64,000 bases of DNA from assembly GCA_031414215.1 (NCBI GenBank), contig JANNVB010000049.1, positions 14,862 to 78,861 of the forward strand, written 5' to 3'. Position 1 is the first letter of the stretch, and every line of letters starts with the position of its first letter. The notes under the pieces were generated by a model. The model did no database searches. It saw only the letters and a list, made by a program, of their open reading frames with translations, and was not told the DNA's origin. Origin of the DNA: Polaromonas sp. GTDB taxonomy: Bacteria; Pseudomonadota; Gammaproteobacteria; Burkholderiales; Burkholderiaceae_C. Positions 31,957 to 59,505 of the stretch are shown here, piece by piece. Both the position numbers and the translations under genes were made by a program.

Positions 31957-34900
31957 TCAACTGTTCAGTTGCAGCCATACCTTCTCAAGCCGTTTGATGC
32001 TAACGGGTTGCGGTGTGCGCAGTTCCTGTGCAAAAAAGCTCACCCGTAACTCCTCCAACAGCCATCGAAACTCTTGCATGCGCGCATCGCTTGCACCCTT
32101 GCGTTCGGCCACCAGTCGCAAGTAGCGTTGTTCTTGGGGTTTGAGCTCTAACATCTTGGCGGCATCTCGTGCCGGGTCCGATCGCCACTTGTCCAGCCGA
32201 GCCGTGATGGCTTTGAGATAGCGCGGAAAGTGTTGCAACTGCGTGTACGGCGTGGCGGTTAAAAACCGTTTGGGGACCAGCCGCTGCAACTGCTGGGCGC
32301 AGTCGGCGCTGGCCTCAACCGCATTTTTTGTGTCCTTGACCTTGCGCTGTGCAACCGTGAATTCAAACAGAACACCGCCCGCCAATCGCGCGATTTCAGT
32401 AGCTATCAGCGTCAGCCGACCGCGACCTTCTTCCAGGCGCTTTTTGAACTCCGCTTCATTGGTTGGCAAAGGCTCCAGCAAAAACGTCCTCGCCAAGGCG
32501 ACTTCAAGAATTTGCCCACGCAATTCCTCCAGCGTTCCGCCACCTGAATTGTCTGCAGCGCGACCCACCAGCATGTAGGCTGTGGCCATTTTCTGCAGAT
32601 CGGGCAGGTTTTTTTCTAGGTACTTGATGGCGTCCTTGATTTGCAGCGCAAACAGGCGGGACAGCCCTGCCCGGTGTTTGGCAGCGGCAAGTTCAGGTTC
32701 GTCAAAGACTTCTATCGTCACGGCATCGACCAAATCGATCAACGCCGGAAACCCAATCAGTGTTTGCGCTCCCTTTCTAATCTCCATCAGCTCAGGCAGC
32801 TCGCCAAAGGCCCAACTGGTGTAGCGCTCAAGCGATTTATGCGCTATTATTTTAGGAGCTGCTTGCTCCCGTATTTGTTGGTTTGGAGGTCTATTTGATA
32901 CCTCAAAAGCATTCAAAACAGGTGTTTTTGAGGTATCAAGGCTTGAAACAGCCAAATTCTTCAGCCCGGCCAGCGCCTGAAACGCCCCGCGCGCCTGCAC
33001 ACCCAAGTCCCCTTTGAGCCCGGCCAGGCTGCGCCCTGCACCCAGTTGCCGGCCATGCTCATCGACCACTCTAAAGTTCATGAACAAGTGTGGCGCTAGC
33101 ATGTCCAGCTTCAAGTCGCCGCGTTTGACATCAACCGCCGTGGCATCGCGCACCAACTTCAACACCGCATCCGTCAATGAGCCTGTACCGAAGACTTCGG
33201 CCTGGCTCAGTTGCTCGGTCATGCGGGCTGCGGTGTCAGGCAGCGGCACCAGGCGCGAGCGGGGCCGCTGGTGCAGGGTTTTGATGAGTGCCTGCACTTT
33301 GTCTTTCAGCATACCCGGCACCAGCCACTCGCAGCGCTCCTCATTGACCTGGTTCAGGGCAAACAGCGGCACATCCACCGTCACGCCGTCTTTTGCATCA
33401 CCTGGCTCATGAAGATACGTGGCCGTGCAGTCCACCCCGCCCAAACGAAGAATTTTCGGAAAAGCCTGCGTCGTGATGCCTGCCGCCTCGTGGCGCATCA
33501 GCTCTTCCTGGGTCAACAAGAGCAGCTTGGGCTGCTTTTTAATTTCTTCCTTGTACCAGGCCTCGCAGCTCGCACCGCTGCAAACATCCGCTGGCAGCTG
33601 CTGGTCGTAAAAGGCGTAAATCAGCTCTTCATCGACCAACACATCTTGCCTGCGGGCTTTGTGCTCCAGGTCTTGGACTTTGGCGATCAGCTTTTCATTG
33701 GCCTTTAGGAATCCGAGCGGCGTATCCCAGTTGCCAGCGACCAAGGCTTCGCGAATGAAAACCTCACGCGCTGCCACTGGGTCAACCCGGCCAAAGTTGA
33801 CGCGCCGCCCGCTGTAAACCACCAAACCATAAAGTGTGGCGCGCTCCAACGCGGTGACTTGCGCGGCTTTTTTCTCCCAATGCGGGTCGAGCAATTGCTT
33901 TTTGAGTAAGTGGCCTGCGACCTGCTCGATCCACTGCGGCTCAATATTGGCAATGCCACGGCCAAAAAGGCGTGTGGTCTCCACCAGCTCGGCGGCCACG
34001 ATCCAGCGACCTGGCTTTTTGCTGAGGTTAGCGCCGGGGTGGCGATAAAACTTAATGCCGCGTGCGCCTAAGTACCAGTCTTCCTCGTCGCTCTTTTGAC
34101 CCAGGTTACCGAGCAAGCCGCACAGCATGGACTGGTGCAGTTGCTCGTAGCTGGCGGGTTTGGTGTTGATGTCCCAGTGCTGCTCGGCCACGGTACTGAC
34201 GAGTTGGGAATGGATGTCGCGCCACTCGCGAACCCGACGCATGTTGATGAAGTTTTCCCTCAACAAATTTTCGTGTTGACGGTTGGAAAGCTTATGTGTT
34301 TGGAGGGTCAGACCCCGATTACCGGAGGTGTCCGCGCCAGCGGGCGGCTCGGTAGATCGGGCTCTGACCCCCACACTTTGTAAGTCCCCGCCCCGCCCAC
34401 CACGCGAATCCCCAAGCCACTTCCAAAGCTTCAAATAACCCACAAACTCGCTTTTTTCGTCGTCAAACTTGGCATGCGCCTGGTCAGCCTGGGCTTGCTT
34501 GTCCATCGGACGGTCACGCACGTCTTGCACGCTCAGGGCGCTGGCGATCACCAATACTTCGTCTAACGCGCCACGGCTTTTGGCCTCCAAAATCATGCGG
34601 CCCACGCGCGGGTCCAGCGGCAGCTTGGCCAGCGTGTGGCCAACGGCGGTGAGTTCGTTGTCGTCGTCCACTGCACCCAACTCGGCCAGCAACTGGTAGC
34701 CGTCTGTCATGGCGCGGCGCTGAGGCGCTTCGATGAAGGCGAAGTCTTCAATCGCACCCAGATGCAGCGCCTTCATGCGCAAAATAACTGCGGCCAATGA
34801 GCTGCGCAAAATCTCGGGGTCGGTAAATCGCTGGCGGCCAGCAAAGTCTTGCGCGTCATACAGCCGTATGCAAATGCCGTCGGCCACCCGGCCGCAGCGC

Positions 34901-35976
34901 CCGGCGCGCTGGTTGGCGGCAGCCTGGCTGATCGGCTCGACCATCAACTGCTCCACCTTGCTCCTGAAGCTGTAGCGTTTGACGCGCGCTGTACCTGCGT
35001 CAATCACATACCGAATCCCCGGTACGGTGAGCGACGTTTCAGCCACATTGGTGGCCAACACGATGCGGCGGTTGTTGTGGTTGGCAAAAATCTGGTCCTG
35101 CTCCGCGGGGCTCAGGCGTGCAAACAACGGCAGCACATCGGCACCGCGATTCAGAGGCTGGTGTGCCAAATGCTTGCGCAGGTGGTCAGCAGCTTCCCTG
35201 ATTTCACGCTCTCCCGGCAAAAAAACCAGAATGTCGCCAGCGTTGTGCGGGCTGAGCCACAGCTCGTCCACGGCATCGGCAATTGCATCGTTCAGGTCAT
35301 AGTCGCGCGATTCTTCAAACGGTCTGTATCTTTGCTCAACCGGAAACATCCGACCAGAAACCATGATGACCGGGGAAGGCCCTTTTGCGGACGCAAAGTA
35401 TTCAGCAAACCGGTTCGCATCAATCGTCGCCGACGTGATGATGACTTTCAAATCGGGTCGGCGCGGCAGCAACTGGCGCAGGTAGCCGAGTAAAAAGTCG
35501 ATGTTCAAGCTGCGCTCGTGCGCCTCATCAATGATGATGGTGTCATAGGCATTGAGCAGCGGGTCGGTTTGCGTCTCAGCCAGCAAAATACCTTCGGTCA
35601 TCAGCTTCACGGATGCGTCCCGGCTCAGGCGGTCCTGAAACCGCACCTTGAAACCCACCACATCGCCCAGCGGTGTTTTAAGTTCTTCCGCTATGCGCTT
35701 GGCCACACTGGATGCAGCAATGCGCCTCGGCTGGGTGTGGCCAATCAGTTTGGCGCGCTGGCCAGCCGGGTAGTTGAGTTTGCCGCGCCCCATGGCCAGC
35801 AAAATTTTGGGCAGTTGCGTGGTTTTGCCAGAGCCGGTTTCACCGCAAACAATCACCACTTGATGCGCGGCAATGGCGGCAGTGATCTCCGCCCGTTTGC
35901 CTGATACGGGCAGCGATTCAGGAAAATCGATGTGCAAAGGTGATGGTGTGTCTACAGGCAAGGACGTGATGCTCAA
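31957..35976 (-). CDS. hrpA: ATP-dependent RNA helicase HrpA (DEAH-box)
   Basis: GETGSGKTTQLPK, IIDEAHERS, ITSATID, QRAGRCGR motifs. 1339 aa. The only available start is TTG 35976, with a GAGG SD. Carries two repeat elements in frame. Confidence 0.95.
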   Translation of the reverse strand: MSITSLPVDTPSPLHIDFPESLPVSGKRAEITAAIAAHQVVIVCGETGSGKTTQLPKILLAMGRGKLNYPAGQRAKLIGHTQPRRIAASSVAKRIAEELKTPLGDVVGFKVRFQDRLSRDASVKLMTEGILLAETQTDPLLNAYDTIIIDEAHERSLNIDFLLGYLRQLLPRRPDLKVIITSATIDANRFAEYFASAKGPSPVIMVSGRMFPVEQRYRPFEESRDYDLNDAIADAVDELWLSPHNAGDILVFLPGEREIREAADHLRKHLAHQPLNRGADVLPLFARLSPAEQDQIFANHNNRRIVLATNVAETSLTVPGIRYVIDAGTARVKRYSFRSKVEQLMVEPISQAAANQRAGRCGRVADGICIRLYDAQDFAGRQRFTDPEILRSSLAAVILRMKALHLGAIEDFAFIEAPQRRAMTDGYQLLAELGAVDDDNELTAVGHTLAKLPLDPRVGRMILEAKSRGALDEVLVIASALSVQDVRDRPMDKQAQADQAHAKFDDEKSEFVGYLKLWKWLGDSRGGRGGDLQSVGVRARSTEPPAGADTSGNRGLTLQTHKLSNRQHENLLRENFINMRRVREWRDIHSQLVSTVAEQHWDINTKPASYEQLHQSMLCGLLGNLGQKSDEEDWYLGARGIKFYRHPGANLSKKPGRWIVAAELVETTRLFGRGIANIEPQWIEQVAGHLLKKQLLDPHWEKKAAQVTALERATLYGLVVYSGRRVNFGRVDPVAAREVFIREALVAGNWDTPLGFLKANEKLIAKVQDLEHKARRQDVLVDEELIYAFYDQQLPADVCSGASCEAWYKEEIKKQPKLLLLTQEELMRHEAAGITTQAFPKILRLGGVDCTATYLHEPGDAKDGVTVDVPLFALNQVNEERCEWLVPGMLKDKVQALIKTLHQRPRSRLVPLPDTAARMTEQLSQAEVFGTGSLTDAVLKLVRDATAVDVKRGDLKLDMLAPHLFMNFRVVDEHGRQLGAGRSLAGLKGDLGVQARGAFQALAGLKNLAVSSLDTSKTPVLNAFEVSNRPPNQQIREQAAPKIIAHKSLERYTSWAFGELPELMEIRKGAQTLIGFPALIDLVDAVTIEVFDEPELAAAKHRAGLSRLFALQIKDAIKYLEKNLPDLQKMATAYMLVGRAADNSGGGTLEELRGQILEVALARTFLLEPLPTNEAEFKKRLEEGRGRLTLIATEIARLAGGVLFEFTVAQRKVKDTKNAVEASADCAQQLQRLVPKRFLTATPYTQLQHFPRYLKAITARLDKWRSDPARDAAKMLELKPQEQRYLRLVAERKGASDARMQEFRWLLEELRVSFFAQELRTPQPVSIKRLEKVWLQLNS
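32843..32960 (+). repeat. Family-A repeat, left half-element inside the hrpA ORF (in frame)
   Basis: gctattattttaggagcTGCTTGCTCCCGTATTTGTTGGtttggaggtc... plus an internal 12-bp hairpin gatacctcaaaa/ttttgaggtatc. Translated on the minus strand as ...SSLDTSKTPVLNAFEVSNRPPNQQIREQAAPKIIAHKS... Confidence 0.85.
34305..34370. repeat. Family-B palindromic (REP-like) element inside the hrpA ORF (in frame)
   Basis: GGGTCAGACCCCGAT (34305-19) and ATCGGGCTCTGACCC (34356-70) are 14/15 inverted repeats. Translated as ...GVRARSTEPPAGADTSGNRGLTL... Confidence 0.75.
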
Positions 35977-36012
35977 AGCCTCACATTATCAACGCCCACA
36001 GCTGATACTGCG

Positions 36013-37236: not shown

Positions 37237-37250
37237 CGCGTCACGTTACA

Positions 37251-41087: not shown

Positions 41088-43514
41088 CTACTTCTTCAAC
41101 CCAGCCAACTTCCCAAACGCCGAAGCCATCGCTGATGGCACGGCCTGAGGTACTTCTTGTCGGCTGCGGTTTTGATTCTGATTAAACCCAGGCCTTGAGC
41201 CCTCAAAACGGTTATCACGCGGCGCATCACGCCTGGCAGGCGCCTCCCCTAGTTTCATCGTCAGCCCAATCCGCTTGCGGGCCACGTCAATTTCCGTCAC
41301 CCTCACTTTCACGATATCGCCTGTTTTGACGACCTCACGCGCGTCGGTAGTGAACTTGTGGCTGAGCTGGCTGACGTGTACCAGGCCGTCTTGATGCACG
41401 CCGATGTCGATGAATGCGCCGAAGGCTGCGACGTTGCTGACGGTGCCTTCGAGCTCCATGCCTTCACGCAGATCCTTGATGTCTTCCACGCCATCGTTAA
41501 AGCGGGCGACTTTGAAGCTGGGGCGCGGGTCTCGGCCTGGTTTTTCCAGCTCCAGCAAGATGTCTTTGACGGTGATCACGCCAAACTTGTCATTGGCGAA
41601 CAGCTCGGGCTTTAACGTTTTGAGCATGTCGGCGCGGCCCATCAGCTCGGCCACCGGTTTGCCAGTGTGCAGCATGATCTGTTCAACGACAGCATAGGTT
41701 TCGGGGTGAACGCCGGTCATGTCCAGCGGGTTGCTGCTGCCGTTCAAACGTAAAAAGCCTGCGCTTTGCTCAAAGGTTTTTGCGCCCAGGCCTGTCACCT
41801 TCAGCAAGTCAGCCCGGCTGGCAAACGCGCCGTTCGCGTCACGCCAGCGCACGACTGACTTGGCCACGGTTTGGCTCAGACCCGACACCCGCGCCAGCAG
41901 CGGCACGCTGGCGGTATTCAGGTCTACGCCGACGCTGTTCACGCAGTCTTCCACCACGGTGTCCAGGCTACGGGCTAAATCCGACTGGTTCACGTCATGC
42001 TGGTACTGGCCTACACCTATGGATTTTGGGTCAATTTTCACGAGTTCTGCCAACGGGTCTTGCAGGCGGCGCGCAATGCTGGCTGCGCCTCGCAGGCTCA
42101 CGTCCACGTCGGGCATTTCCTGGCTGGCGAACTCGCTGGCCGAATAAACCGATGCGCCAGCTTCACTCACAACTACTTTTTCTACTATGAAATCAGTAGC
42201 TGCTTGCGCCCGTATTGATTGGTCTGGAGCAATATTTGATGTATTTTTTGAGCTCTTTTGGAGCATTTTGATCAAATCTGCAGCCAATTTGTCGGTTTCG
42301 CGGCTGGCGGTGCCATTGCCAATCGCAATCAGGTTCACGCCGTGCTTTTCAGCCAACTTGGCCAGCGTATGCAGCGAGCCGCCCCAGTCTTTGCGCGGCT
42401 CGTGCGGGAAGACGGTGGCCGTTTCAACCAGCTTGCCTGTACTGTCCACCACCGCCACCTTCACCCCCGTGCGTATGCCGGGGTCCAAGCCCATCACCAC
42501 GCGCGGCCCTGCGGGTGCGGCCAACAGCAGGTCGCGCAGGTTGTCGGCAAATACCTTGATGGCGACCTTTTCAGCGTCTTCACGCAACCGGGTGAAAAGG
42601 TCACGCTCCAGTGACAAGCTGAGCTTGACGCGCCAAGCCCAGGCGACGCATTTGCGCAGAAGGTCGTCGGCGGGGCGGGCTCTGTGCGACCAGCCCAAGT
42701 GCAAGGCGATTTTTCCCTCTGCTAAAGAAACCACTGGTCCTTTAACAGGCACATCGCCCAGCGGCGGCTCGGGCAGCAACAGCTTGGCATCCAGAATCTC
42801 CAAACCCCGCCCCCTGAAAACTGCCAGCGCCCGGTGGGACGGCACGCGGCCTATCGGCTCGTCGTAGGCAAAATAGTCGCGAAACTTGGCGTTATCAGCT
42901 AAGTTTTCGTCTTTGCCCGTCACCAGTTTTGAGCTGAACAAGCCTTCAGACCACAACCAGCCGCGCAGCATTTGCACCAGCGCAGCGTCTTCGGCCCAGC
43001 GCTCGCTCAAAATGTCACGCACGCCGTCCAGCACAGCCTGCACGGTGGTGAAGTCGTCGCCCTGCTCGTTTTTGTCTGGCTTCACATACGCCGCAGCTTC
43101 GCCCGCTGGCACAAGCAAAGGATTGGCAAACAGCGCGTCGGCCAGTGGCTCAATGCCCGCCTCACGCGCAATTTGGCCTTTGGTGCGGCGCTTTTGCTTG
43201 TACGGCAGGTACAGGTCTTCCAGGTCTTGCTTGGTGGCAGCCAGCTCAATGGCTGCGCGCAGTTCGGACGTCAGCTTGCCTTGGCTTTCAATGCTGCTCA
43301 GCACGGCTTCACGGCGTTCTGCCAGCTCACGCAGGTAACCCAGGCGGTATTCGAGTTCCCGCAATTGGATGTCGTCCAGCCCGCCAGTGGCTTCTTTGCG
43401 GTAACGGGCAATAAACGGGACTGTTGCGCCGCCGTCCAGCAACTCAACAGCGGTTTTGACCTGATGGTCCTGGACCTTGATTTCGAGCGCGATTTGGCGA
43501 ATGATAGTGTGCAT
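41088..43514 (-). CDS. tex: Tex transcription accessory protein (S1 RNA-binding)
   Basis: ATG 43514 gives MHTIIRQIALEIKVQDHQVKTAVELLDGGATVPFIARYRKEATGGLDD... C-terminal S1 domain GMELEGTVSNVAAFGAFIDIGVHQDGLVHVSQL. The track ORF extension to 43871 is rejected. Carries one repeat in frame. Confidence 0.9.
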   Translation of the reverse strand: MHTIIRQIALEIKVQDHQVKTAVELLDGGATVPFIARYRKEATGGLDDIQLRELEYRLGYLRELAERREAVLSSIESQGKLTSELRAAIELAATKQDLEDLYLPYKQKRRTKGQIAREAGIEPLADALFANPLLVPAGEAAAYVKPDKNEQGDDFTTVQAVLDGVRDILSERWAEDAALVQMLRGWLWSEGLFSSKLVTGKDENLADNAKFRDYFAYDEPIGRVPSHRALAVFRGRGLEILDAKLLLPEPPLGDVPVKGPVVSLAEGKIALHLGWSHRARPADDLLRKCVAWAWRVKLSLSLERDLFTRLREDAEKVAIKVFADNLRDLLLAAPAGPRVVMGLDPGIRTGVKVAVVDSTGKLVETATVFPHEPRKDWGGSLHTLAKLAEKHGVNLIAIGNGTASRETDKLAADLIKMLQKSSKNTSNIAPDQSIRAQAATDFIVEKVVVSEAGASVYSASEFASQEMPDVDVSLRGAASIARRLQDPLAELVKIDPKSIGVGQYQHDVNQSDLARSLDTVVEDCVNSVGVDLNTASVPLLARVSGLSQTVAKSVVRWRDANGAFASRADLLKVTGLGAKTFEQSAGFLRLNGSSNPLDMTGVHPETYAVVEQIMLHTGKPVAELMGRADMLKTLKPELFANDKFGVITVKDILLELEKPGRDPRPSFKVARFNDGVEDIKDLREGMELEGTVSNVAAFGAFIDIGVHQDGLVHVSQLSHKFTTDAREVVKTGDIVKVRVTEIDVARKRIGLTMKLGEAPARRDAPRDNRFEGSRPGFNQNQNRSRQEVPQAVPSAMASAFGKLAGLKK
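42185..42270 (+). repeat. Family-A repeat inside the tex ORF (in frame)
   Basis: ctatgaaatcagtagcTGCTTGCGCCCGTATTGATTGGtctggagcaatatttgatg... Translated on the minus strand as ...MLQKSSKNTSNIAPDQSIRAQAATDFIV... Confidence 0.85.
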
Positions 43515-43638
43515 TTTTTTAATTTTTCTAACCAGAAGATGCATCAACTGACGCTGGAAACATGCATTGTCCCACAGCAAAAACACGCCCACGGGAGAAC
43601 AATCAACCATCGATTTATCGCACCCGCCGGAGAACCCC

Positions 43639-44127
43639 ATGCGCACCAAGTCCCTGCTCTTTATCACCTTTACCCTGCTGATAGCGGCTTTTACCGTTCT
43701 CAATGTGGACGAGTTCACTCGTACCAGCACATTGAGTCTGGGCTTTACCACCATGCAGATGCCCCTTGGGCTGATCATGCTGATGCTGGTGGCTGCCCTG
43801 TTGCTGATTTTTTTGACTTTCGCGCTGTACATGCGCAGCGTGCAGCTGCTTGAAAACCGCAAACAATCCAAAGAACTGACATCGCAACGCGACCTAGCCG
43901 AGAAGGCCGAAAGCTCCCGCTTCAGCCAGCTCCGGGGCTACCTGGAATCGCAGGCGCTGATGTGCAAAAACCGTGAAACCGAAACGATCGCCAACCTGGA
44001 TCGCCGCATGGCACAGACCGAAAAGCATTTGCTGCAGCGTCTGGAGCAATCCGACAAGACCAACGCCGCCTATTGGGGTCAGCATGACGATGCCTTGGCG
44101 CGCAACAGGTTACAGCCTCAACGATAA
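43639..44127 (+). CDS. membrane-anchored coiled-coil protein (LapA/DUF1049-like N-terminus)
   Basis: GGAGAA SD then ATG 43639. Two TM helices (LLFITFTLLIAAFTVL, LIMLMLVAALLLIFLTFALY), then a charged helical tail. Confidence 0.4.
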   Translation: MRTKSLLFITFTLLIAAFTVLNVDEFTRTSTLSLGFTTMQMPLGLIMLMLVAALLLIFLTFALYMRSVQLLENRKQSKELTSQRDLAEKAESSRFSQLRGYLESQALMCKNRETETIANLDRRMAQTEKHLLQRLEQSDKTNAAYWGQHDDALARNRLQPQR

Positions 44128-44205
44128 GCTGGGGCCACTTTAAAGTTGTAAGAAGCCGCCATCCCACACGACAAAACAGAGTTACAACACTTTGTGGAGT
44201 CTTTC

Positions 44206-44955
44206 ATGCGCCAGTCAGTCAATTTTTACACTCCTAAATTAATAGCTGCTTGCACCCTGATCTGTTGGTCTGCAGGCACTTTCGCACAGTCAAACCAGTG
44301 CTCAGTGGCCTCCGGGCCCACCATCACACCCGTGGTCGAGCTGTACACCTCTGAAGGCTGCAGCTCTTGCCCGCCCGCCGACAAATGGGCGTCCAGCCTA
44401 AAAGGCAGCAACACGGTGGTGCAAGCCTTTCATGTCGGTTACTGGGACTACATCGGTTGGGTAGACCGTTTTGCAGCGCCCGCCTACACCCAGCGCCAAC
44501 GCGAGATTGCGGCTAAAAACAATCTGCGCAGCATCTACACCCCGCAAGCCGTACTCGACGGCAAAGACTGGCCGCGCTGGGGGGGCAAGCCTGAAGGCAA
44601 AGAGCCTGCCAAAGCAACAATCACATTGAAGCAACTTGGCACTGACCAGTTTGAAGCCAGCGTCACACCTATCTTGCCCGCCACCAACTGGTCAGCCTAC
44701 TGGACAGTCACCGAGCACGGCCACAACTCCAAGGTGCTGGCGGGCGAAAACAAAGGCGAGTTTTTAAAACACGACTTTGTAGTGCGCCAACTGGTGCAAG
44801 CTGGCGACTACAAAGCGGGCGATACAGCGGCCCAAAAGCTCACCTTCCGCAGCATCGCGCCTACGCCTGGCCACCCGCGCCAGGTCAATTTGGTGGTGTT
44901 TGACGCCAAAACGGGCAAAACCCTGCAGGCGGTGAGCTTGCAGTGCGCCGCGTGA
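44206..44955 (+). CDS. DUF1223-family secreted thioredoxin-like protein
   Basis: ATG 44206 with a GGAG SD. Signal peptide. VELYTSEGCSSCPPADKW motif characteristic of DUF1223. Confidence 0.7.
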   Translation: MRQSVNFYTPKLIAACTLICWSAGTFAQSNQCSVASGPTITPVVELYTSEGCSSCPPADKWASSLKGSNTVVQAFHVGYWDYIGWVDRFAAPAYTQRQREIAAKNNLRSIYTPQAVLDGKDWPRWGGKPEGKEPAKATITLKQLGTDQFEASVTPILPATNWSAYWTVTEHGHNSKVLAGENKGEFLKHDFVVRQLVQAGDYKAGDTAAQKLTFRSIAPTPGHPRQVNLVVFDAKTGKTLQAVSLQCAA

Positions 44956-45017
44956 CCTGTTCTGCACCAATAGCCGCACCCTGACTGTGCCAAATCAGTT
45001 TGGCACATACTTGCTGG

Positions 45018-46263: not shown

Positions 46264-46322
46264 GCTGTATAAAAAATAGCTGCCTGCACCCGTATTCATT
46301 GGACTAAAGGCCTATTTGTACC
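46264..46322 (+). repeat. Family-A repeat, solo end
   Basis: gctgtataaaaaatagcTGCCTGCACCCGTATTCATTGGactaaaggcctatttgtacc. Confidence 0.8.
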
Positions 46323-46398
46323 TTATATCGGCATGCCTATGACTGGCAACCGAAGCACTTATCTAGGTTCAGCACCATGCCAATTTGTGCACGTATCT

Positions 46399-46761
46399 TC
46401 ATGAGTCATCTCCAGACTCATCCGATAAAAGGGGATGCGTACCGAAGAGCGTCAACAAAGCGGAACTGTCCTTCCGGGCAGAAACCGCGTGCTTTTCGCC
46501 GGGGCTGATGTGGCACAAATCACCTGGGTTCAGCGTCAACTGTCGCCCCATCGTTTCAAAAAGAATCTCACCTTCGAGGCACTGAAATACCAAATGAAGG
46601 CTGACAGCGTGTGGTTTTAAAACATGGCCACGAGGCAGTACAAGACGTGAAATTTGCAACGCATGTTCTCTGACAAGGGTCTGCGACCGACCGGCAGACC
46701 ACTGCTCCCCAAGCGATCCAGCAGCAATGACTTCTCCAAATGTGGCGTGTATTTGGGCCAT
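46399..46761 (-). CDS. cupin-domain protein downstream of norB
   Basis: ATG 46761 (MAQIHATF...). ...GHVLKPHAVSLHLVFQCLEGEILFE...GDLCHISPGEKHAV looks like a cupin beta-barrel. Confidence 0.5.
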   Translation of the reverse strand: MAQIHATFGEVIAAGSLGEQWSAGRSQTLVREHALQISRLVLPRGHVLKPHAVSLHLVFQCLEGEILFETMGRQLTLNPGDLCHISPGEKHAVSARKDSSALLTLFGTHPLLSDESGDDS

Positions 46762-46768
46762 TGACGTT

Positions 46769-49081
46769 TCAATCCGCTCTCGGCGTGGCGCGCCCTGCAA
46801 AATAAGCCCGTACCGCCGCAATCACGATCGGCACCACGCCCACAACAATAAATACGGCATCACCGGGAAATCGCGCCCACTCCATCATGCGCGCCAAGTC
46901 ACCGCCGGTGTAAGCCAGGCTGCGCGCATGCCAGTAGCCGTTGTTCAGCACATCGGCCAATTGCAAAATACCCGCCGGGAACAGGCTGAAGACCACCATC
47001 ATCATCAGCCCGATATTCAGCCCCCAAAAGCCGACGCGGATGTACTTTTCAAGCTCGCGCCACAGCTTTTCATCAACCGTCTGGCGAATGGCAAACACAA
47101 TCAGCGCAATGCCCAACATGCCAAACACACCCATCATGGCGGCGTGGCCGTGGTTGATGGTCAGCAGCGTGCCAGTTTCAAAATAGCTCACCACGGGCAG
47201 GTTGATCAAAAAGCCCAGCACACCCGCGCCAAAAAAGTTCCAGAAACCGACCGACATCAAAAAGTAGAACGTCCATTTGTGCGGCACTTCAGTGCGCTCG
47301 CGCTTGGGGTCTGAACCAGGCCAAGATAGGCGCACAAAATCCCACGCATCCAGGGTGATCAGGGTCAGCGGCACCACTTCAAGCGCTGAAAACACCGCCG
47401 ATAGCGCCATGTTCAAACTGGTTTGACCTGACCAGTACCAGTGATGGCCTGTGCCGATAAAGCCGCCCGCAAAGTACAGCACCGCATCCAGGTAAATCAC
47501 CCGCGTGGCGGTCAGCCGCGTGACCACACCAAATTGCAAAAAGATGATGGCCACCATTACGGTCACAAAAAATTCAAAGAAGCCCTCCACCCACAAGTGA
47601 ATGATCCAAAAGCGCCAGGTATCGACAATTGAAAAGTGCGTGCTGCCGTCAAAAAACATGGCGGGCAAGTAAAACACCGGAATGGCTACGGCTGCGCACA
47701 TGAACAACCCGGCAATCTCGCGGCGCTCAGGGTCTCGCCACGCCGGTTGCAGTGCCCGCACCAGCAACCCAAACCAGAACAGCAACGCCACTGCCAGCAT
47801 CATTTGCCAGGCGCGGCCCAACTCCAGATACTCCCATCCCTGGTGACCAAACCAAAACCACCAGTTGGGCAACAGTTGCAGCATGCCAGCCCACTCGCCC
47901 AGCATGCTGCCCACCACCACCACGATCAAGGCACCAAACAAAACATCGATGCCTTTTTTCTGGCCTTTTGGGTCGCCACCGCCCAGCGTTGCCGCCAAAA
48001 ACAACGCGCCCGCCACATAGCAAGTCGCTATCCAGAAAAGTGCCAATTGCAAATGCCAGGTACGCAGCAAATTACTCGGCAACCAAGCTGCCAGATCGAA
48101 CCCATAAAACGTACCAGGGTCGGCACGGTAATGGGCCAAAGCCCCGCCAACAAGCGTTTGGGCAAATAGCAACAGTGCCACCACCGCAAAATACTTCAGC
48201 GTGGCGCGCTGGGCGGGCGTGGCTGTCGTGCTCTGTGCTGGCGGGTGCAAATAACCGGCTCGGGCTTTCCAGCCCAGGTAGTCAAACTTGCCAAAGGCCA
48301 GCAACACGGCAGCCGTGCCGCCCAATAAAAAGATCAGGCTGACAGCAGACCAGAGCACTGCATCGGCTGATGGCGTATTGCCGGCCAGCGGGTCATAGGG
48401 GAAGTTGTTGGTGTATGAATGGTTGGTACTAGGCCGCAGTGCTGCCGCGGCCCAGGATGTCCATGCCACAAAAGCGCTCAGTTGGCGCAACTCGCCAGGG
48501 TCAGTGATGGTTTTCGCACGCAGGCCACCGTTGTATTTGGGGTCTGAGAAATACTCGACCCAAGCGGCAGGACGACTTGCAAACCATGCTGCGTAGTCTT
48601 CGCCCACCGTCAGCACCTTGGTTTGCGGGTCGTAGAGGTTTTGTTTCAGTGCGGTACGTACCTCTGCTTCAATGGCTGCGCGTTTGGCGGGCGGCAAAGT
48701 TTCTAACGTGCCGTTGCCTCTTGCCAAGGCCATGCTGCTGGCGTTGTGTACGGCCAGTGTGTGCAAATAGTCGGCTGAAAAATCAGGACCCAGAAGAGCG
48801 CCGTGGCCCCAGATCGATCCGTTGTTCATCAGCGCGTATTTTAAAAACACCAGTTGCCCAGCGGTGACGTCTTGGGCGGTGTACACCACAACGCCGCTGG
48901 TGGTCACCACCCGTTCAGGTATTGGCGGCGCGTCGGTGTAGACCCTGGTGGTCAGCAAAATTAGCACCGCAAAGCCGAGCACCATGGTGATGATTGCCGA
49001 GCGCCGCCACCACGGCGACAACTTGTCAGTGGTTTGGGCGCCAGACAGCGGCGGCATGCCAGACGAGAGGTCATTTTGCAT
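46769..49081 (-). CDS. norB: quinol-dependent nitric oxide reductase (single-subunit qNor)
   Basis: About 770 aa. Long N-terminal extension plus a 12-TM heme-copper oxidase core (HLWVEGFFE, HHWYW, GHAAMMGVFG). ATG 49081. Confidence 0.85.
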   Translation of the reverse strand: MQNDLSSGMPPLSGAQTTDKLSPWWRRSAIITMVLGFAVLILLTTRVYTDAPPIPERVVTTSGVVVYTAQDVTAGQLVFLKYALMNNGSIWGHGALLGPDFSADYLHTLAVHNASSMALARGNGTLETLPPAKRAAIEAEVRTALKQNLYDPQTKVLTVGEDYAAWFASRPAAWVEYFSDPKYNGGLRAKTITDPGELRQLSAFVAWTSWAAAALRPSTNHSYTNNFPYDPLAGNTPSADAVLWSAVSLIFLLGGTAAVLLAFGKFDYLGWKARAGYLHPPAQSTTATPAQRATLKYFAVVALLLFAQTLVGGALAHYRADPGTFYGFDLAAWLPSNLLRTWHLQLALFWIATCYVAGALFLAATLGGGDPKGQKKGIDVLFGALIVVVVGSMLGEWAGMLQLLPNWWFWFGHQGWEYLELGRAWQMMLAVALLFWFGLLVRALQPAWRDPERREIAGLFMCAAVAIPVFYLPAMFFDGSTHFSIVDTWRFWIIHLWVEGFFEFFVTVMVAIIFLQFGVVTRLTATRVIYLDAVLYFAGGFIGTGHHWYWSGQTSLNMALSAVFSALEVVPLTLITLDAWDFVRLSWPGSDPKRERTEVPHKWTFYFLMSVGFWNFFGAGVLGFLINLPVVSYFETGTLLTINHGHAAMMGVFGMLGIALIVFAIRQTVDEKLWRELEKYIRVGFWGLNIGLMMMVVFSLFPAGILQLADVLNNGYWHARSLAYTGGDLARMMEWARFPGDAVFIVVGVVPIVIAAVRAYFAGRATPRAD

Positions 49082-49181
49082 ATACAAGTCCTTTTTATTG
49101 GCAGGTTATATGGCTGGCTCGTCAAATGGCTGGAATGGCGGCTAGGTACGCTGACCGTAGATGCAATTGATTGATGAGACT

Positions 49182-49195
49182 TTGCGTTAGATCAA
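49182..49195. promoter_or_regulatory. FNR/Dnr-type box candidate (TTGCG-N4-ATCAA) upstream of norB
   Basis: ttgcgttagatcaa lies ~100 nt upstream of the norB ATG. 8/10 match to TTGAT-N4-ATCAA. Confidence 0.3.
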
Positions 49196-49249
49196 ACATC
49201 ACGCTGGCTTTGCGAAATAAGGATGACCAGCCATAAAACTTGCTCACTG

Positions 49250-49265
49250 TGTGCGCCAGCGTACA
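49250..49265. promoter_or_regulatory. palindrome TGTGCG-CCAG-CGTACA (site D of the shared motif)
   Basis: Midway in the norB / PAS-kinase divergent region. 13/16 match to site A. Confidence 0.35.
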
Positions 49266-49429
49266 GACCGGAGGATCAAAATCAGTGAAAGTCTTGGGAA
49301 TTGCGTTTGGGCGCGGGTTTATGCGGCATTGGACTACACCCATTTGCACCAGTTAGGCGTATGCTGAAAAAACCTGTTTTATTGCAGCCGTGGCCCTAAT
49401 CTCTCAACAGACTCTTCAAACAACCCCAT

Positions 49430-52858: not shown

Positions 52859-52926
52859 GGAAAGCTTCTCCTTAGAGCTTATTCAATGTGGGTGGCTCTA
52901 TTGAAAATGCAGGCAGTACCGCCGTC

Positions 52927-52942: not shown

Positions 52943-52991
52943 TAGTACAGTTTGTGACTTATTTATTTTGATGTTTTAAAGTAACTAATAT

Positions 52992-53112
52992 GCTATGTTT
53001 TTAGGAGCTTTTTACGCCCGTATTTATTAGTTTAGAGGCCTAAACAGTACCTATAAAGTGTCTGAAAACAGAGCTTTAAGTGCTTTTTAAGACGCAAAAC
53101 ACCCGTTTTGAC
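52992..53112 (+). repeat. Family-A repeat, degenerate left half-element
   Basis: gctatgtttttaggagcTTTTTACGCCCGTATTTATTAGtttagaggcctaaacagtacctataaag... Confidence 0.7.
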
Positions 53113-53122
53113 TATGGCCTGC

Positions 53123-53955: not shown

Positions 53956-54002
53956 TAGCGCCGAAACCAGCCAGATAAGCGCCAATAGACTACACCACTG
54001 GG

Positions 54003-54752: not shown

Positions 54753-54843
54753 GGTGAAACTCCTGTTAGGCCAGCTTTGCATCACTACCGCAGGACGGTT
54801 TGGCACAAAGTCCAGCAGTCTAGACACATTGTGCGCGTTTATC

Positions 54844-54859
54844 TGTGCGCTAACGCACA
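54844..54859. promoter_or_regulatory. perfect palindrome TGTGCG-CTAA-CGCACA (site A of the shared motif)
   Basis: 92-107 nt upstream of the 54752 start. An extra half-site TTGTGCGCG lies at 54829-37. Confidence 0.45.
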
Positions 54860-54901
54860 TAACTGTTACACGGCGCTAATGCAAAGTGTTAATACAAAGC
54901 G

Positions 54902-57900
54902 TTAATGAAAATCACGACTGGGCGTACCCAGCCGACCCAGCAGGGGCGACAAGTCCTCCAGGCTGGCGGCAATCAGGTTACGTACTTTGCCAAAGCCTTC
55001 AGGCGCGCCGTCTTCTTCACTGCGCTGCCATGTGCCGTACACGGCCAACAGCCGGGCATGCAGCACCTCAGCGCGCTGGGTTTGCCGCAATGACTTCCAG
55101 ACAATCACATTGATCGACCCGGTTTCGTCTTCAAGGGTGAGGAACATCGTGCCTTTGGCGGTTGAGGGCTGCTGGCGCAGCGTGACGATACCGCAGGCGG
55201 CGACGTCTTCGCCATCGGGCAGTGCGTTGAGCTGCGCGGCGGTTAAAAAGCCTTTTTCAGCCAGGCGTGAGCGCAGCAGTGCCAGCGGGTGGCGGCGCAG
55301 CGTGAGGCCGGTGGCGCGGTAGTCGAACAAAATGTTTTCACCCTCGGGCGTGTCTGGCAGGTCGAGTGCCGCCTCGTGCGTGGGCACGGCTTTTAGCAGC
55401 AGTGGCTGCGGTTTGATGGCTGCTGCTTGCCACACCTGCTGCCTGCGGTGGCCGGCCAGCGGGGCGAGTGCATCGGCGGCGGCCAGGGCGTTGACCTCTA
55501 AGGTGCCGAGCTGGGCGCGCAGGCAGAGGTCTTCAACACTGGTGAATGCGGCTTGGCTTCTGGCGGTCAGGATGCGGTCAACCGTGGTCTCGCTCAGGCC
55601 GCTGACCAGGCGCAGCCCCAGGCGAATGGCGGGCTGGTTGGGGCGTATGCCGGGGTAGGCTGCATCAGGTTCACGCAAAACCGCATTTGCCTCAAGGGTG
55701 CAGTCCCAGGCGCTTTGGGTGATGTCGATGGCTCGTACGTCAACCCCGTGCCTGCGGGCGTCTTGCATCAGTTGCGACGGTGAATAAAACCCCATCGGCT
55801 GGGAGTTGACGAGTGCAGCAAAAAAACAGGCGGGTTCATGGCATTTGAGCCAGCAACTGACATACACCAGCTTGGCAAAGCTGGCGGCGTGGCTTTCAGG
55901 AAAACCGTATTCGCCAAAGCCTTCAATCTGCTTGAAGATGTTGTCGGCAAAGCTGCGCTCATAGCCGCGCTCAACCATGCGGCCCACCAGCCGGTCGTAA
56001 AACCGCTTGACGCCGCCCTTTCGCTTCCAGGCGGCCATGGAGCGGCGCAGGTCATCGGCCTCGCCAGCGGTAAAGTCAGCCGCCACCATGGCGATTTGCA
56101 TGACCTGCTCTTGAAATATCGGCACGCCCAGGGTGCGGCCCAGGGCGCGGCGCAGCTCTTCATTGGGGTAGGTTTCAAGCTGCGGGTTGGCGCGGCGTTT
56201 GAGGTAAGGGTGCACCATGCCGCCTTGAATCGGCCCGGGCCGCACGATGGCGACTTCAACCACCAGGTCGTAAAAGCAGCGCGGTTTGAGGCGCGGCAGC
56301 ATGCTCATTTGCGCCCGGCTTTCGATTTGAAACACGCCCACCGTATCGGCCTGGCAAATCATGTCGTAGGTTTGCTCGTCGCCTGACGGGATCTGGTGCA
56401 TCTCCAGGCGCCCACCGCGCCACTGGTCAATCAGCTGCAAGCTGCGCCGAATGGCCGACAACATGCCGAGCGCCAGCACATCAACTTTCAGCAGACCCAT
56501 CGCGTCCAGGTCGTCTTTGTCCCACTGAATGATGCGCCGCGCCTCCATGGTGGCGGGCTGAATCGGCACCAGCCGTGTCAGCTTGGATTGCGTCAGCACA
56601 AAGCCGCCCACATGCTGGCCCAAGTGGCGCGGGAAACCGAGCAATTGCACCGTCAGGTCCAGCCACTGCAAGATCGGGCCAGCGTCTTTTGCTTCGTTGA
56701 TATTGGCTTCTTGCAGGCGCTGAGCCAGCAGGCCGCTGCCGTCAAACCAGAAGTTTTCTTTGGCAAACTGCTCAATCATTTCAGGTGCAATACCGAGTGC
56801 CTTTCCCACATCACGAATGGCGCTGCGGGGCCGGTAGCAGGTGACGGTGGCGGCTATTGCCGCGCGGTCATGGCCGTATTTGGCGTAGATGTACTGAATC
56901 ACTTCTTCACGCCGTTGGTGCTCAAAGTCAACATCAATGTCGGGCGGCTCTTTGCGTTCGCGGCTGATAAAGCGTTCAAACAGCAATTGGCTTTCAGCCG
57001 GGTTGACCGCCGTGATGCCGAGGCAAAAGCACACCGCCGAATTGGCCGCAGAGCCGCGCCCCTGACACAAAATGCCCTGCTCGCGCGCAAAGCGGACGAT
57101 GTCATGCACGGTGATGAAATACATCTCGTAGTGCAGCTCTTCAATCAGGGCGAGTTCATGCGCCAGCTGGGTGCTGATTTGTGCGGGCACACCGCCCGGG
57201 TAGCGCTGGGCTGCGCCATCGCCTGTCAGGCGGCGCAGGCAGTTGGCGGGGGTTTCTTGTGTGGCGGCGATCTCGCCCAGCGGGTAGCGGTAAAGGTCAC
57301 GAATTTCGTTCAGGTTAAACGTGCAGCGCGACGCGACAACCAGGGTGGCTGCCAGCAGCTCGGGCGGGTACAAGCTGGCCAGCCGCATGCGGGGCCGCAA
57401 ATGCGCCTCAGCGTTGGGCTGCAGGGCAAAGCCGCAGTCGTGGACGGTTTTACTCAGCCCAATGGCGGTGAGGACGTCGTGCAGCGGCTTGCGTGATCGC
57501 ACATGCATGCGCACGTCCCCGCAAGCGAGAAGCGGCACGCCGGTTTGCTGGCTGAGTACCTGCAATTGCTGCAGGCGCAGCGCGTCGTCCAGCCCTTGCA
57601 GCAGCTCGACGCCAAGCCACATATGGGCGCTTTTTTGGGTATTAAAAAGGCCTTTTAACCAATGAATACGGGCGCAAGCAGCTTCTGTATTGATAGCACC
57701 TTGCACCAGGCAGACAATGACCTCACAGTGCTTCAGAATCGACAAGTCTGTACTTGGCGTGACCAAATAGCTGCCTTTTTCCACGGCATCGCCTGCGGCT
57801 CTGGCTTGGGTAATAAATTCGCACAGGTTGCCCCAGCCGCTGGCGTTGTGCGGCAACACCACCAGGCGAAAAGGCGAGTCACACGACACCCAAAACTCGG

Positions 57901-58099
57901 CTCCCGGCAGCAGCTGAATGCCGCATTTTTCAGCCTCGCCATGGGCCCGCACCACACCGGCGACCGAACATTCGTCTGTCATCGCGATGGCTTTGTAGCC
58001 CAGGGCGTGGGCGCGCGCTACCAGCTCCTCAGCGTGCGACGCGCCGCGCTGAAAGCTGAAATTGCTCAGCACATGGAGTTCAGCGTATTCCGGAAGCAT
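54902..58099 (-). CDS. dnaE2: error-prone DNA polymerase DnaE2 (ImuC)
   Basis: ATG 58099 gives MLPEYAELHVLSNFSFQRGAS (PHP domain), then the Pol III alpha core. 1-nt TAATG overlap with imuB. Carries one repeat in frame. Confidence 0.9.
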   Translation of the reverse strand: MLPEYAELHVLSNFSFQRGASHAEELVARAHALGYKAIAMTDECSVAGVVRAHGEAEKCGIQLLPGAEFWVSCDSPFRLVVLPHNASGWGNLCEFITQARAAGDAVEKGSYLVTPSTDLSILKHCEVIVCLVQGAINTEAACARIHWLKGLFNTQKSAHMWLGVELLQGLDDALRLQQLQVLSQQTGVPLLACGDVRMHVRSRKPLHDVLTAIGLSKTVHDCGFALQPNAEAHLRPRMRLASLYPPELLAATLVVASRCTFNLNEIRDLYRYPLGEIAATQETPANCLRRLTGDGAAQRYPGGVPAQISTQLAHELALIEELHYEMYFITVHDIVRFAREQGILCQGRGSAANSAVCFCLGITAVNPAESQLLFERFISRERKEPPDIDVDFEHQRREEVIQYIYAKYGHDRAAIAATVTCYRPRSAIRDVGKALGIAPEMIEQFAKENFWFDGSGLLAQRLQEANINEAKDAGPILQWLDLTVQLLGFPRHLGQHVGGFVLTQSKLTRLVPIQPATMEARRIIQWDKDDLDAMGLLKVDVLALGMLSAIRRSLQLIDQWRGGRLEMHQIPSGDEQTYDMICQADTVGVFQIESRAQMSMLPRLKPRCFYDLVVEVAIVRPGPIQGGMVHPYLKRRANPQLETYPNEELRRALGRTLGVPIFQEQVMQIAMVAADFTAGEADDLRRSMAAWKRKGGVKRFYDRLVGRMVERGYERSFADNIFKQIEGFGEYGFPESHAASFAKLVYVSCWLKCHEPACFFAALVNSQPMGFYSPSQLMQDARRHGVDVRAIDITQSAWDCTLEANAVLREPDAAYPGIRPNQPAIRLGLRLVSGLSETTVDRILTARSQAAFTSVEDLCLRAQLGTLEVNALAAADALAPLAGHRRQQVWQAAAIKPQPLLLKAVPTHEAALDLPDTPEGENILFDYRATGLTLRRHPLALLRSRLAEKGFLTAAQLNALPDGEDVAACGIVTLRQQPSTAKGTMFLTLEDETGSINVIVWKSLRQTQRAEVLHARLLAVYGTWQRSEEDGAPEGFGKVRNLIAASLEDLSPLLGRLGTPSRDFH
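57641..57697 (-). repeat. Family-A repeat inside the dnaE2 ORF (in frame)
   Basis: attaaaaaggccttttaaCCAATGAATACGGGCGCAAGCAGCttctgtattgatagc. Read on the minus strand as GAINTEAACARIHWLKGLFN. Confidence 0.85.
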
Positions 58100-59505
58100 T
58101 ACGCAAAGACTCCTTGCAAATACCACTCGCGCTGGTTTTGGTCACGTTCAGCCAACGCCAGGCGCTCGCTGTAAATCCAAAGCAACACACCCTGCCGGTT
58201 GCGGTAAATAAAGTAGTCGCGCAGTGCTGGCGCGATGTCAGCCTGGTCAGCAAGCAGCCAGCCAGTGGCCTCCAGACGCTGCGGCCCGGCCAGTTTGTGC
58301 AGCGGGCCCTGGTACACCGGGCTGCCCGCCACGGCGGCAAGCTTCAAAGGCACGGCCAGCAGCCAGGAGGGGTATAAAACACCGTTTTCAAGCCTGTTTT
58401 CAGTGTCTTTTAGGCCTTTTGACCAATGAATACGGGCGCAAGCAGCTCCTGATTTAATAGCGTTTGTTGTGCTGACTGCATTCTGCCAGCGCTGCATTTG
58501 CTCCGGCCGGTGGTCTGCACAGGCTTGCCAGGTTTGCACTTGTGCAGCGCCCAGCCGTGCGCTTAAACGCTCGATCAGTTGCAGCGCGCTGTCGCCCTGC
58601 TGTTTGTCCTCTGGCAGCAAGCTGGTGGTTGCGAGTGCACAGGCGCACAGCTTTTCGGTCACCAGCGACTGCAAGCCAATGGTGTGCACGGGGGCAGCCA
58701 GGGTTTGCTGGTTCAGCCGCTCGGTGATCAGCCGCGCCACATGCCGCAGGTCTTGCGCGTTGTTGGCTGATCGAACCACCAACTCGCCAGTTGCCGCCCC
58801 GCCCCGGCGTTTGTCAAAGTGCCAAATGATTTTTAGTGCCGTCAAACCGCTCTGGCGGCCCAGCAGCCAGGCCTGCAATTGCGCCAAGAGTTGCGACACA
58901 CCGGCCATCAACGCTGGGGCATGCACCACCAGCGCATCAAGCTCGAGCTTTTCATCAAACTGCTCGGGCAGTTGCAGCCAGGTATAGCTGTCGGGCAGCA
59001 CGCCCCGAGCCCGGTCCAGTGCGGCCAGCAGCGGCGCGCCAAAGCGGCGGGCCACGCCGTCGCGCGGCAGCTTGAGCAGGTCGTCCCAGGTGCGGCAACC
59101 CATGCGTTCGAGCACGTCCAGGTGCGGGCGAGCGGCGCTTAAAGTGTGCATCGGCATGTCGGCTACCCGGCCAGCGGGCTGCACTGGCTGGCCGCGCTGC
59201 AAGCGCAAGCGCCCGAGTGCTATTAATGATGTAGCGCCTTGCGCCCGTATATATTGGGCTAGAGGCATATTTAATGCTAAAAACTGCTGCAATTGCTGCT
59301 CTAGCAGGGCCAAGAGCTTGCGCAAACCACCAAACAGCCGCAAGCTGCCGGAGACTTCCATCACCACGGCTTCGTCGAGCAGGGCCACGCGCGGGGTAAA
59401 ACCCAGCGCAATGGCGCTGATGGCCCGCTGCAAGGCGGCGTCGTCCATCAGCATGGGCTCAGTGAAGGACTCAGTGGATGAGGCTTGTAACGCGATCCAG
59501 CGCAT
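58099..59505 (-). CDS. imuB: Y-family-polymerase-like ImuB
   Basis: MRWIALQ... start. Sits between imuA and dnaE2 in the canonical cassette order. Carries two repeats in frame. Confidence 0.8.
   Translation of the reverse strand: MRWIALQASSTESFTEPMLMDDAALQRAISAIALGFTPRVALLDEAVVMEVSGSLRLFGGLRKLLALLEQQLQQFLALNMPLAQYIRAQGATSLIALGRLRLQRGQPVQPAGRVADMPMHTLSAARPHLDVLERMGCRTWDDLLKLPRDGVARRFGAPLLAALDRARGVLPDSYTWLQLPEQFDEKLELDALVVHAPALMAGVSQLLAQLQAWLLGRQSGLTALKIIWHFDKRRGGAATGELVVRSANNAQDLRHVARLITERLNQQTLAAPVHTIGLQSLVTEKLCACALATTSLLPEDKQQGDSALQLIERLSARLGAAQVQTWQACADHRPEQMQRWQNAVSTTNAIKSGAACARIHWSKGLKDTENRLENGVLYPSWLLAVPLKLAAVAGSPVYQGPLHKLAGPQRLEATGWLLADQADIAPALRDYFIYRNRQGVLLWIYSERLALAERDQNQREWYLQGVFA
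58408..58461 (-). repeat. Family-A repeat inside the imuB ORF (in frame)
   Basis: ttttaggccttttgaCCAATGAATACGGGCGCAAGCAGCtcctgatttaatagc. Read on the minus strand as AIKSGAACARIHWSKGLK. Confidence 0.85.
59219..59275 (+). repeat. Family-A repeat inside the imuB ORF (in frame, opposite orientation)
   Basis: gctattaatgatgtagcGCCTTGCGCCCGTATATATTGGgctagaggcatattt. Read on the minus strand as PLAQYIRAQGATSLIAL. Confidence 0.8.

Follow-up and report, generated by a model that had tools for sequence, protein, structure and literature searches.

A dispersed repeat of Polaromonas with a built-in stop codon and the sense codons found in its place inside genes

Copies of the repeat in a 64-kb stretch of Polaromonas DNA

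A short sequence with the consensus core CCAAT(A/G)AATACGGGCG is repeated along a 64,000-nucleotide stretch of Polaromonas sp. DNA (assembly GCA_031414215.1, contig JANNVB010000049.1, positions 14,862 to 78,861 of the forward strand), the whole of which is called the window below. When up to two mismatches were allowed, the 16-nt core CCAATRAATACGGGCG was found 16 times in the window, as compared to 0.07 matches expected from shuffled sequences. An nhmmer model built from these copies added a weak 17th one at 44235-44277. Codon-by-codon translation shows that three copies are read as CAA-NNN-ATA-CGG within long minus-strand open reading frames (ORFs) corresponding to hrpA, tex and imuB. Pfam searches with the window ORFs identified HrpA, Tex and the neighbouring DnaE2, and ImuB was named from ImuB homologues. 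At the NNN codon, 13 of the 16 strong copies carry a stop, either TAA (8 copies) or TGA (5 copies), while hrpA, tex and imuB carry CAA, TCA and TAT, respectively. These codon states are those listed in an earlier note on this DNA. The window copies are given below, with the codon read on the strand of the element; L109 designates a syntenic relative having about 84% DNA identity with the window.

32841-32903, minus strand: unit in hrpA (ORF 31957-35976, minus); core 32866-32881; codon 32875-32877 is CAA
42182-42244, minus strand: unit in tex (ORF 41088-43871, minus), within the YqgF domain; core 42207-42222; codon 42216-42218 is TCA
59217-59279, minus strand: repeat-like segment in imuB (ORF 58099-59505, minus); core 59242-59257; codon 59251-59253 is TAT
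58401-58463, plus strand: unit in imuB, reverse orientation, in a hypervariable linker; core at 58423; TGA
57637-57699, plus strand: unit in dnaE2 (ORF 54902-58126, minus), reverse orientation; core at 57659; TGA
60468-60530, minus strand: unit at the 3′ end of icd (ORF 60502-62115, minus); core 60493-60508; TAA at 60502-60504 is the icd stop codon
4642-4704, minus strand: intergenic; core 4667-4682; TGA
8975-9037, minus strand: intergenic; core 9000-9015; TAA; the stop of a histidine-kinase ORF (7672-8985) lies within its right end
9127-9189, plus strand: intergenic; core at 9149; TGA; head-to-head partner of 8975-9037
10336-10398, minus strand: intergenic; core 10361-10376; TAA
13323-13385, plus strand: intergenic; core at 13345; TAA; adjoins a Fic-family ORF (12940-13335) and a convergent ORF (13388-15874)
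18518-18580, plus strand: intergenic; core at 18540; TAA
19367-19429, plus strand: intergenic; core at 19389; TAA; right-end hairpin with 12-nt arms
23022-23084, plus strand: intergenic; core at 23044; TAA
44235-44277, minus strand: weak diverged copy in a DUF1223 ORF (44194-44955); orthologous copy in L109
46262-46324, minus strand: intergenic; core 46287-46302; TGA (TAA in the L109 orthologue); 14 nt past the stop of ORF 45000-46247
52990-53052, minus strand: intergenic; core 53015-53030; CTAATAA, giving two in-frame stops; orthologous copy in L109

In the window, the split between the two classes is complete: three sense codons and no stop in the translated frame, no sense codon and 13 stops in the other copies (exact p = 1/560). 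The earlier note had stated that untranslated copies all keep the stop. The 13 stops are indeed there, but one of them belongs to icd, which reads copy 60493 in exactly the frame under consideration. The minus-strand coordinates given previously were about 10 to 23 nt off, a longer core having been used. The opposite orientation had been described as free of stops in every copy. The reverse copies in imuB and dnaE2 do read GCT GCT TGC GCC CGT ATT CAT TGG, but copy 53015 reads ...ATT TAT TAG and, over the whole 63-nt unit, the reverse frame contains at least one stop in 7 of the 16 window copies.

The genus was sampled by an exact-pattern scan in which the codon position was left free (CCAANNNATACGGGCGCAAGCAGCT). 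At least 100 loci were obtained, and the matches listed came only from Polaromonas or from Burkholderiales metagenome-assembled genomes (MAGs). Using nhmmer on the window and these loci (0.75 Mb of Polaromonas DNA), 232 copies of the repeat were collected. The copies are sharply conserved between about –22 and +41, counted from the start of the core. The repeat unit is 63 nt long with about 40% G+C; it has a clean right end, ATAGCG, and an almost invariant 25-nt core, CCAATAAATACGGGCGCAAGCAGCT. Many copies are longer, the unit being preceded by a left arm of phased T-tracts. This arm is often a hairpin, the stem of which does not have a constant sequence (GATACCTCAAAA/TTTTGAGGTATC in hrpA, AGGTGCCTGAAAATA/TATTTTCAGGTGCCT in locus L056). 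A GCTAC...GTAGC hairpin is present in some copies only, and some of the others have a small hairpin at their right end. Terminal inverted repeats were absent from the five copies checked, and no inverted repeat or palindrome spanning the element was found in the copies checked for folding. Copies occur singly or as a head-to-head pair, never in tandem arrays. Among the sampled loci, only seven pairs were orthologous duplicates and no clean empty intergenic insertion site was found. An Rfam scan of the window returned a tRNA as its sole match and nothing for the repeat. In a promoter and terminator scan, terminator-like sites occurred in the window at the rate of shuffled controls and no repeat copy was called a terminator. 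Finally, a literature search with the core sequence gave no match. The repeat is an undescribed interspersed family of Polaromonas.

Intergenic copies are usually placed just past a stop codon, antisense to the gene that ends there. The right end faces a gene 3′ end in 63 of the 96 well-scoring intergenic copies, with a median gap of 12 nt. This spacing suggests either a target specificity or a function at 3′ ends. Three window genes terminate inside copies, namely those encoding the histidine kinase (8983-8985), the Fic-family protein (13333-13335, TAG) and icd (60502-60504), and the convergent ORF 13388-15874 ends 3 nt past the right end of copy 13323-13385. In the head-to-head pair at 8975-9189 (cores 9000, minus, and 9149, plus), the left arms abut, which makes a large imperfect palindrome between two genes.

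State of the built-in stop codon across the genus

By location, the 232 copies divide into 163 intergenic ones, 35 lying inside a gene in the forward frame CAA-NNN-ATA, three at genes ending on the element's own stop codon and 31 in other coding frames; about 30% of the repeat copies lie in genes. Of the three genes ending on the element's stop, icd was verified by translation, and in this gene the built-in stop is used rather than avoided. Hosts beyond the window include the genes for GluQRS, MutL, GuaA, ProA, LpxK, an asparaginase, a crotonase and a carboxyltransferase, and the ten host ORFs checked with Pfam were ordinary enzymes.

For the codon test, one copy was kept per orthologous group, and a gene flank of at least 150 nt on the 5′ side and of at least 100 nt on the 3′ side was required. 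None of the 26 internal forward-frame copies has a stop at the codon (TCA 7, CAA 6, TTA 3, others), as compared to 120 of the 163 intergenic copies (74%; TAA 73, TGA 32, TAG 15). Copies in other coding frames have kept the stop about as often as intergenic copies have (15/27). The Fisher test that the earlier note had proposed therefore reveals a depletion in the translated frame, with p = 1e-13 with respect to intergenic copies and p = 4e-6 with respect to other coding frames. When only copies scoring at least 45 bits are considered, the sense/stop counts are 8/0 for the forward frame in genes versus 18/80 for intergenic copies (p = 5e-6).

The same census limits one earlier statement and reinforces another. 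That every other copy keeps the stop does not hold beyond the window, where sense codons are found in 43 of the 163 intergenic copies (26%), with TCA (11), TTA (9) and TGG (8) leading. On the other hand, the TCA, CAA and TAT variants are not equally common among intergenic copies: TCA represents 27% of coding versus 7% of intergenic copies, and CAA 23% versus 2%. Changes of the first base of the codon are found in 15 of the 26 coding copies but in only 10 of the 163 intergenic ones (p = 2e-9), a 9-fold enrichment, and 16 of the 26 coding sense codons are one step from TAA or TGA. Over all 232 copies, no core position varies more than the middle base of the NNN codon (A 123, G 55, T 28, C 26). 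Outside the codon, divergence is equal in coding and intergenic copies. The only substitution found to be tied to a codon class shows a weak association: of 17 TCA copies, 13 have A at –21 (p = 7e-5). No real gene split by a stop-bearing copy was found among the census copies. Two candidate genes that seemed to be interrupted by stop-bearing copies were both spurious antisense ORFs. Selection against the built-in stop is real, though largely expected and partly true by definition. The idea that insertions were retained only when, or after, the stop was removed is thus upheld as regards selection against the stop, 'when' and 'after' being indistinguishable.

The reading direction of the genic copies is strongly biased. 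Over the 115 intergenic copies considered, the unit is open in the forward frame in 10% of the cases and in the reverse GCT-GCT-TGC frame in 64%, and two or three forward stops are present within the 63-nt unit in 47 of the 115. Internal coding copies nevertheless comprise 26 forward versus 9 reverse ones (binomial p = 5e-16), corresponding to an 18-fold excess of the stop-bearing frame. Repair after insertion, a well tolerated forward peptide (..AQxIRAQAA..IA) or a cost of reverse copies in transcripts could each contribute to this excess. Provisionally, we ascribe it to an orientation-dependent cost of reverse copies, given that copies located just past stop codons normally have this reverse orientation. 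In that orientation, the repeat may end or process transcripts.

Insertions, in-place replacements and their age

The hrpA copy is a net insertion of 40 amino acids as compared to E. coli HrpA, and the peptide that it is predicted to encode includes QQIREQAAP. Its long form reaches about position 32945 and includes a hairpin with 17-nt arms. The insert is present in 120 of the 120 best HrpA homologues (84-96% identity), with mostly Q at the codon. Most of the best 120 Tex homologues also contain the tex insert, the codon encoding mostly S but also L, V, I or M. Four tex orthologues are devoid of it (P0196, P0233, P0234 and P0240). At the DNA level, the empty tex sites of loci L101 and L102 show a net difference of 54 nt, corresponding to 18 additional residues in filled tex; comparison of filled and empty sites reveals no visible target-site duplication, the loop having diverged. 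In GluQRS, the copy is a net insertion too, with 35 additional residues. Whatever the orthologue of hrpA, tex or imuB considered, the frame remains open and the residue at the codon varies. Since the hrpA and tex inserts are common to nearly all orthologues, the changes are old, and a sense donor cannot be distinguished from a later repair. Judging from the orthologues, the sense codons of hrpA and tex are inherited from deep ancestors. Dating the substitutions in this way, as the earlier note had suggested, thus yielded old, inherited changes and no dated repair.

In the tex orthologues P0128, P0160, P0183, P0201 and P0231, this loop of the YqgF domain, equivalent to window positions 42182-42244, is occupied by another insert (..VRAEPVEASPSTSSGRT..). 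With two types of insert, the loop would be a preferred site for repeats of more than one family. In hrpA, a second, unrelated G+C-rich in-frame insert is located at 34297-34395 (codons about 525-562). It is bounded by 15-16-nt terminal inverted repeats, GGGGTCAGAGCCCGAT ... ATCGGGGTCTGACCC, and a related short palindrome is found at 12607-12625. Because this G+C-rich insert is missing from L109 hrpA, it would be a more recent insertion resembling a MITE (miniature inverted-repeat transposable element).

All five repeat copies of the region shared with L109 are present in L109. The intergenic copy at 46287 has TGA in the window and TAA in L109, showing that the codon mutates in place. In hrpA and tex, the 25-nt core of the window copy is identical to that of L109 at 24/25 and 25/25 positions, respectively, as compared to 27/38 and 32/38 in the rest of the unit and to about 84% for the genome. 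This comparison of sequences suggests a DNA-level constraint on the core or its concerted evolution.

Some copies do not lengthen their host. In imuB, the region is 55 residues long versus a median of 53 in 113 distant ImuB representatives, showing no net insertion, and the segment can be aligned with a native motif of the family, g.APTSLAALALAR. An element-like peptide, ..SN..AQxIRAQ[GA]ATSLIA, is found in 120 of 120 ImuB homologues having 58% identity and above, and the copy codon corresponds to Y, L, I, V, M or S among orthologues. Since this codon varies and no net length was added, the data do not establish that TAT arose from TAA by a single change. One of the three examples given earlier, that of imuB, was misread. 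In the AlphaFold model of ImuB, which is moderate overall (mean predicted local distance difference test score 64), the segment lies in the best-predicted part and is predicted to form strand 83-90 together with the beginning of helix 93-103. Foldseek gave weak matches of this model to Pol IV, and a search of the PDB by sequence returned no ImuB relative. In the window, the G+C content at third codon positions (GC3) is 0.25 in the segment versus 0.73 in the rest of the gene. The segment is AT-rich in two distant MAG loci too, with segment/rest values of 0.40/0.71 and 0.30/0.72 (L103 and L105), whereas ImuB genes outside this clade have GC3 values of 0.80-0.90 in the same segment. Foreign AT-rich composition and usual length argue that repeat DNA replaced the native strand-helix of imuB in place.

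The two distant imuB-dnaE2 loci (ImuB 48-52% identical) contain weak repeat-like segments at the positions seen in the window (10226-10258 and 11922-11977 in L103; 10268-10294 and 11035-11092 in L105). No dispersed copies were found near them in 20 kb of flank. A transfer of the imuB-dnaE2 cassette between lineages may account for this, as may an extinction of the repeat in the distant loci.

Three other copies hardly change the length of the protein. The dnaE2 copy adds only 4 residues as compared to three distant plasmid DnaE2 proteins, which were used here, the alignment with E. coli DnaE being uninformative. The copy in the enoyl-CoA hydratase (crotonase) adds 2 residues with respect to PDB entry 4k2n, and the carboxyltransferase with its copy spans 489 residues over 491 Pfam profile positions. 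The in-place units of the enoyl-CoA hydratase and the carboxyltransferase score 44-51 bits (position 3848 in L009 and 5432 in L078, position 2913 in L029).

Origin of the sense codons and relation to known repeats

In the preferred explanation, TAA is part of the master sequence, which reads CAA-TAA-ATA in the frame considered. Copies translated in this frame with their stop truncate the protein and are purged by purifying selection. Survivors either have a sense codon at this position or are located at the very 3′ end of a gene, where TAA serves as the gene stop, as in icd. The observations show that stops are depleted, that the sense codons are diverse, that the insertions are old and that icd makes use of the stop, while the order of events is inferred. 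The sense codon could have been present already in the donor copy, TCA, TTA and TGG being standing variants, or it could result from a point mutation after insertion, as might be the case for CAA, a T-to-C transition strongly enriched in genes. We estimate the probability of this explanation, an undescribed repeat together with purifying selection on its built-in stop, at roughly 0.75.

Several points weigh against this explanation. The test of stop depletion is partly circular, as an intact ORF cannot hold a stop. Genes were called with our own codon-usage model, trained on long ORFs, and not taken from curated annotation, and the peptides assigned to host-gene copies are those predicted from the ORFs. 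Well-preserved copies are over-represented, the loci having been gathered by an exact-core pattern. Copies below about 35 bits, for instance that of LpxK, may be native sequences resembling the repeat. In addition, the simple insertion model fails for the copies that add no length, and a passive filter, in which copies must be open at insertion, cannot explain the excess of the forward frame.

One alternative, unlikely but deserving serious attention, dispenses with repair: only donors already carrying a sense codon would have become fixed in genes, which corresponds to the 'when' part of the earlier statement. The standing variants TCA, TTA and TGG, which come first among the intergenic sense codons, would provide such donors, and TCA is the commonest codon in coding and in intergenic sense copies alike. 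Moreover, tex has S at the codon throughout the genus, and no interrupted gene was found that could represent an unrepaired stage. The codon spectra do not agree with this idea, however. CAA accounts for 6/26 copies in genes versus 3/43 intergenic sense copies, TGG for 0/26 versus 8/43, and first-base changes are in large excess in genes. Furthermore, as only 10% of donor units are open in this frame, forward coding copies would be expected to be about 6-fold rarer than reverse ones, and they were observed to be about 3-fold more numerous.

It is also conceivable, though doubtful, that the repeat enters genes by a further route, a short templated patch replacement from dispersed units during repair or recombination. 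If this were true, the repeat would overwrite native segments of equal length, even the palm strand-helix of ImuB and a helix of the crotonase. The 25-nt core would owe its later preservation to a DNA-level function or to concerted evolution, the 18-fold frame excess would be explained, and selfish DNA would have a new route to rewrite proteins.

Two other explanations appear improbable. In the first one, the stop is derived: the founder was open in the frame, the old coding copies are its descendants, and a TAA master later filled intergenic regions. The genus-wide age of the hrpA, tex and imuB copies and the dominance of the forward frame in coding copies would agree with such a history. However, the sense codons in genes are diverse and mostly within one step of TAA or TGA, intergenic copies are also common to relatives of about 84% identity, and divergence outside the codon is the same for coding and intergenic copies; the A at –21 of TCA copies is the only diagnostic substitution, and a weak one. 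In the second, to which we give little credit, nothing beyond definition is at work: ORFs lack stops, and the three changes are drift in old copies. The argument is logically correct, one sense codon does give way to another at the imuB position among orthologues, and the middle base of the codon varies more than any other core position. Drift would nevertheless leave stops in genes at the intergenic rate, thereby producing pseudogenes, and none were seen; the stop is about as frequent in copies of other coding frames as in intergenic ones, and the 9-fold enrichment of first-base changes in genes is left without a cause. Finally, the idea that the core was born from imuB, whose copy would be the source and would never have had a stop, recalls the alignment with the native strand-helix of distant ImuB without net insertion and the element-like segments that distant MAG loci, lacking dispersed copies in 20 kb of flank, have at three imuB-dnaE2 positions in common with the window, but it is very improbable and was rejected on codon composition, the segment being foreign by its GC3 in the window, L103 and L105, and two more operon copies in the opposite orientation cannot also be sources.

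The closest analogue of the repeat is the Rickettsia palindromic elements (RPE), compared here by their description. According to the account of RPE given in PMC10969869 (Ogata et al. 2000, 2002), these repeats of ~100 bp occur between and inside unrelated housekeeping genes, and copies are always in frame, with a conserved peptide and an intact host ORF. The Polaromonas repeat is likewise multi-copy, dispersed and in frame inside unrelated intact ORFs. It differs from RPE by its hosts, free-living Betaproteobacteria instead of obligate intracellular Alphaproteobacteria, by the absence of a palindrome over the whole element, by a consensus whose commonest frame in genes contains a stop, and by copies that replace native segments without changing the length. 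Bacterial MITEs with intragenic copies include ERIC, Correia/NEMIS and Coxiella QMITE1 (PMC3184786, PMC10969869). As these, the Polaromonas repeat is small, non-coding and present in high copy number, shows presence/absence polymorphism (tex), and sometimes makes in-frame fusions, sometimes supplies stop codons to neighbours. In contrast with MITEs, terminal inverted repeats are lacking (five copies), and no cognate transposase was identified, no search having been aimed at one.

Another repeat of Betaproteobacteria, BRE, is ~90 bp long, has a G+C content of about 69% and is often arranged in tandem; its highest count is in Polaromonas sp. JS666, and it is mostly intergenic with some copies wholly within coding sequences (Hot et al. 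2011, PMC3110155). The present unit, with about 40% G+C and copies dispersed singly or head-to-head, belongs to a different family. It also departs from REP/REPIN, which are 20-40 bp G+C-rich extragenic palindromes with a GTAG or CGTC tag, since it is 63 nt long, about 40% G+C and 30% genic.

Uptake signal sequences (USS) of Pasteurellaceae and DNA uptake sequences (DUS) of Neisseria are dense, often located just past genes and sometimes arranged as inverted pairs. Many of their copies are intragenic, in preferred frames and without change in protein length, and the core is conserved as DNA. These cores are 9-12 nt long and arise by point mutation. The Polaromonas repeat resembles them in being dense and downstream of genes, in having intragenic copies with a frame preference and in its DNA-conserved core, but this core of 25 nt is part of a 63-nt unit, and net insertions of 18, 35 and 40 residues (54-120 nt) are observed.

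So far, repeats lying in frame within genes have been regarded as a peculiarity nearly unique to Rickettsia, and a second, unrelated family would make the phenomenon general. The family can be viewed as a natural experiment on the tolerance of proteins to foreign peptides and, in the annotation of Polaromonas genomes and MAGs, it could serve to mark where genes end and where insertions lie. We consider the family itself, undescribed, anchored at stop codons, about 30% intragenic, with an unexplained frame bias and in-place replacements, as more interesting than the depletion of the stop.

Comparison with L109 revealed two further differences. A 3.1-kb segment of the window (46320-49422), comprising a qNor-type norB and a cupin gene, is absent from L109, and a 621-nt segment is found only in L109 (reverse complement 19067-19688). 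Both indels start 14-18 nt left of a repeat core (46287 and 53015). A tRNA gene is located at 17631-17717 of the window.

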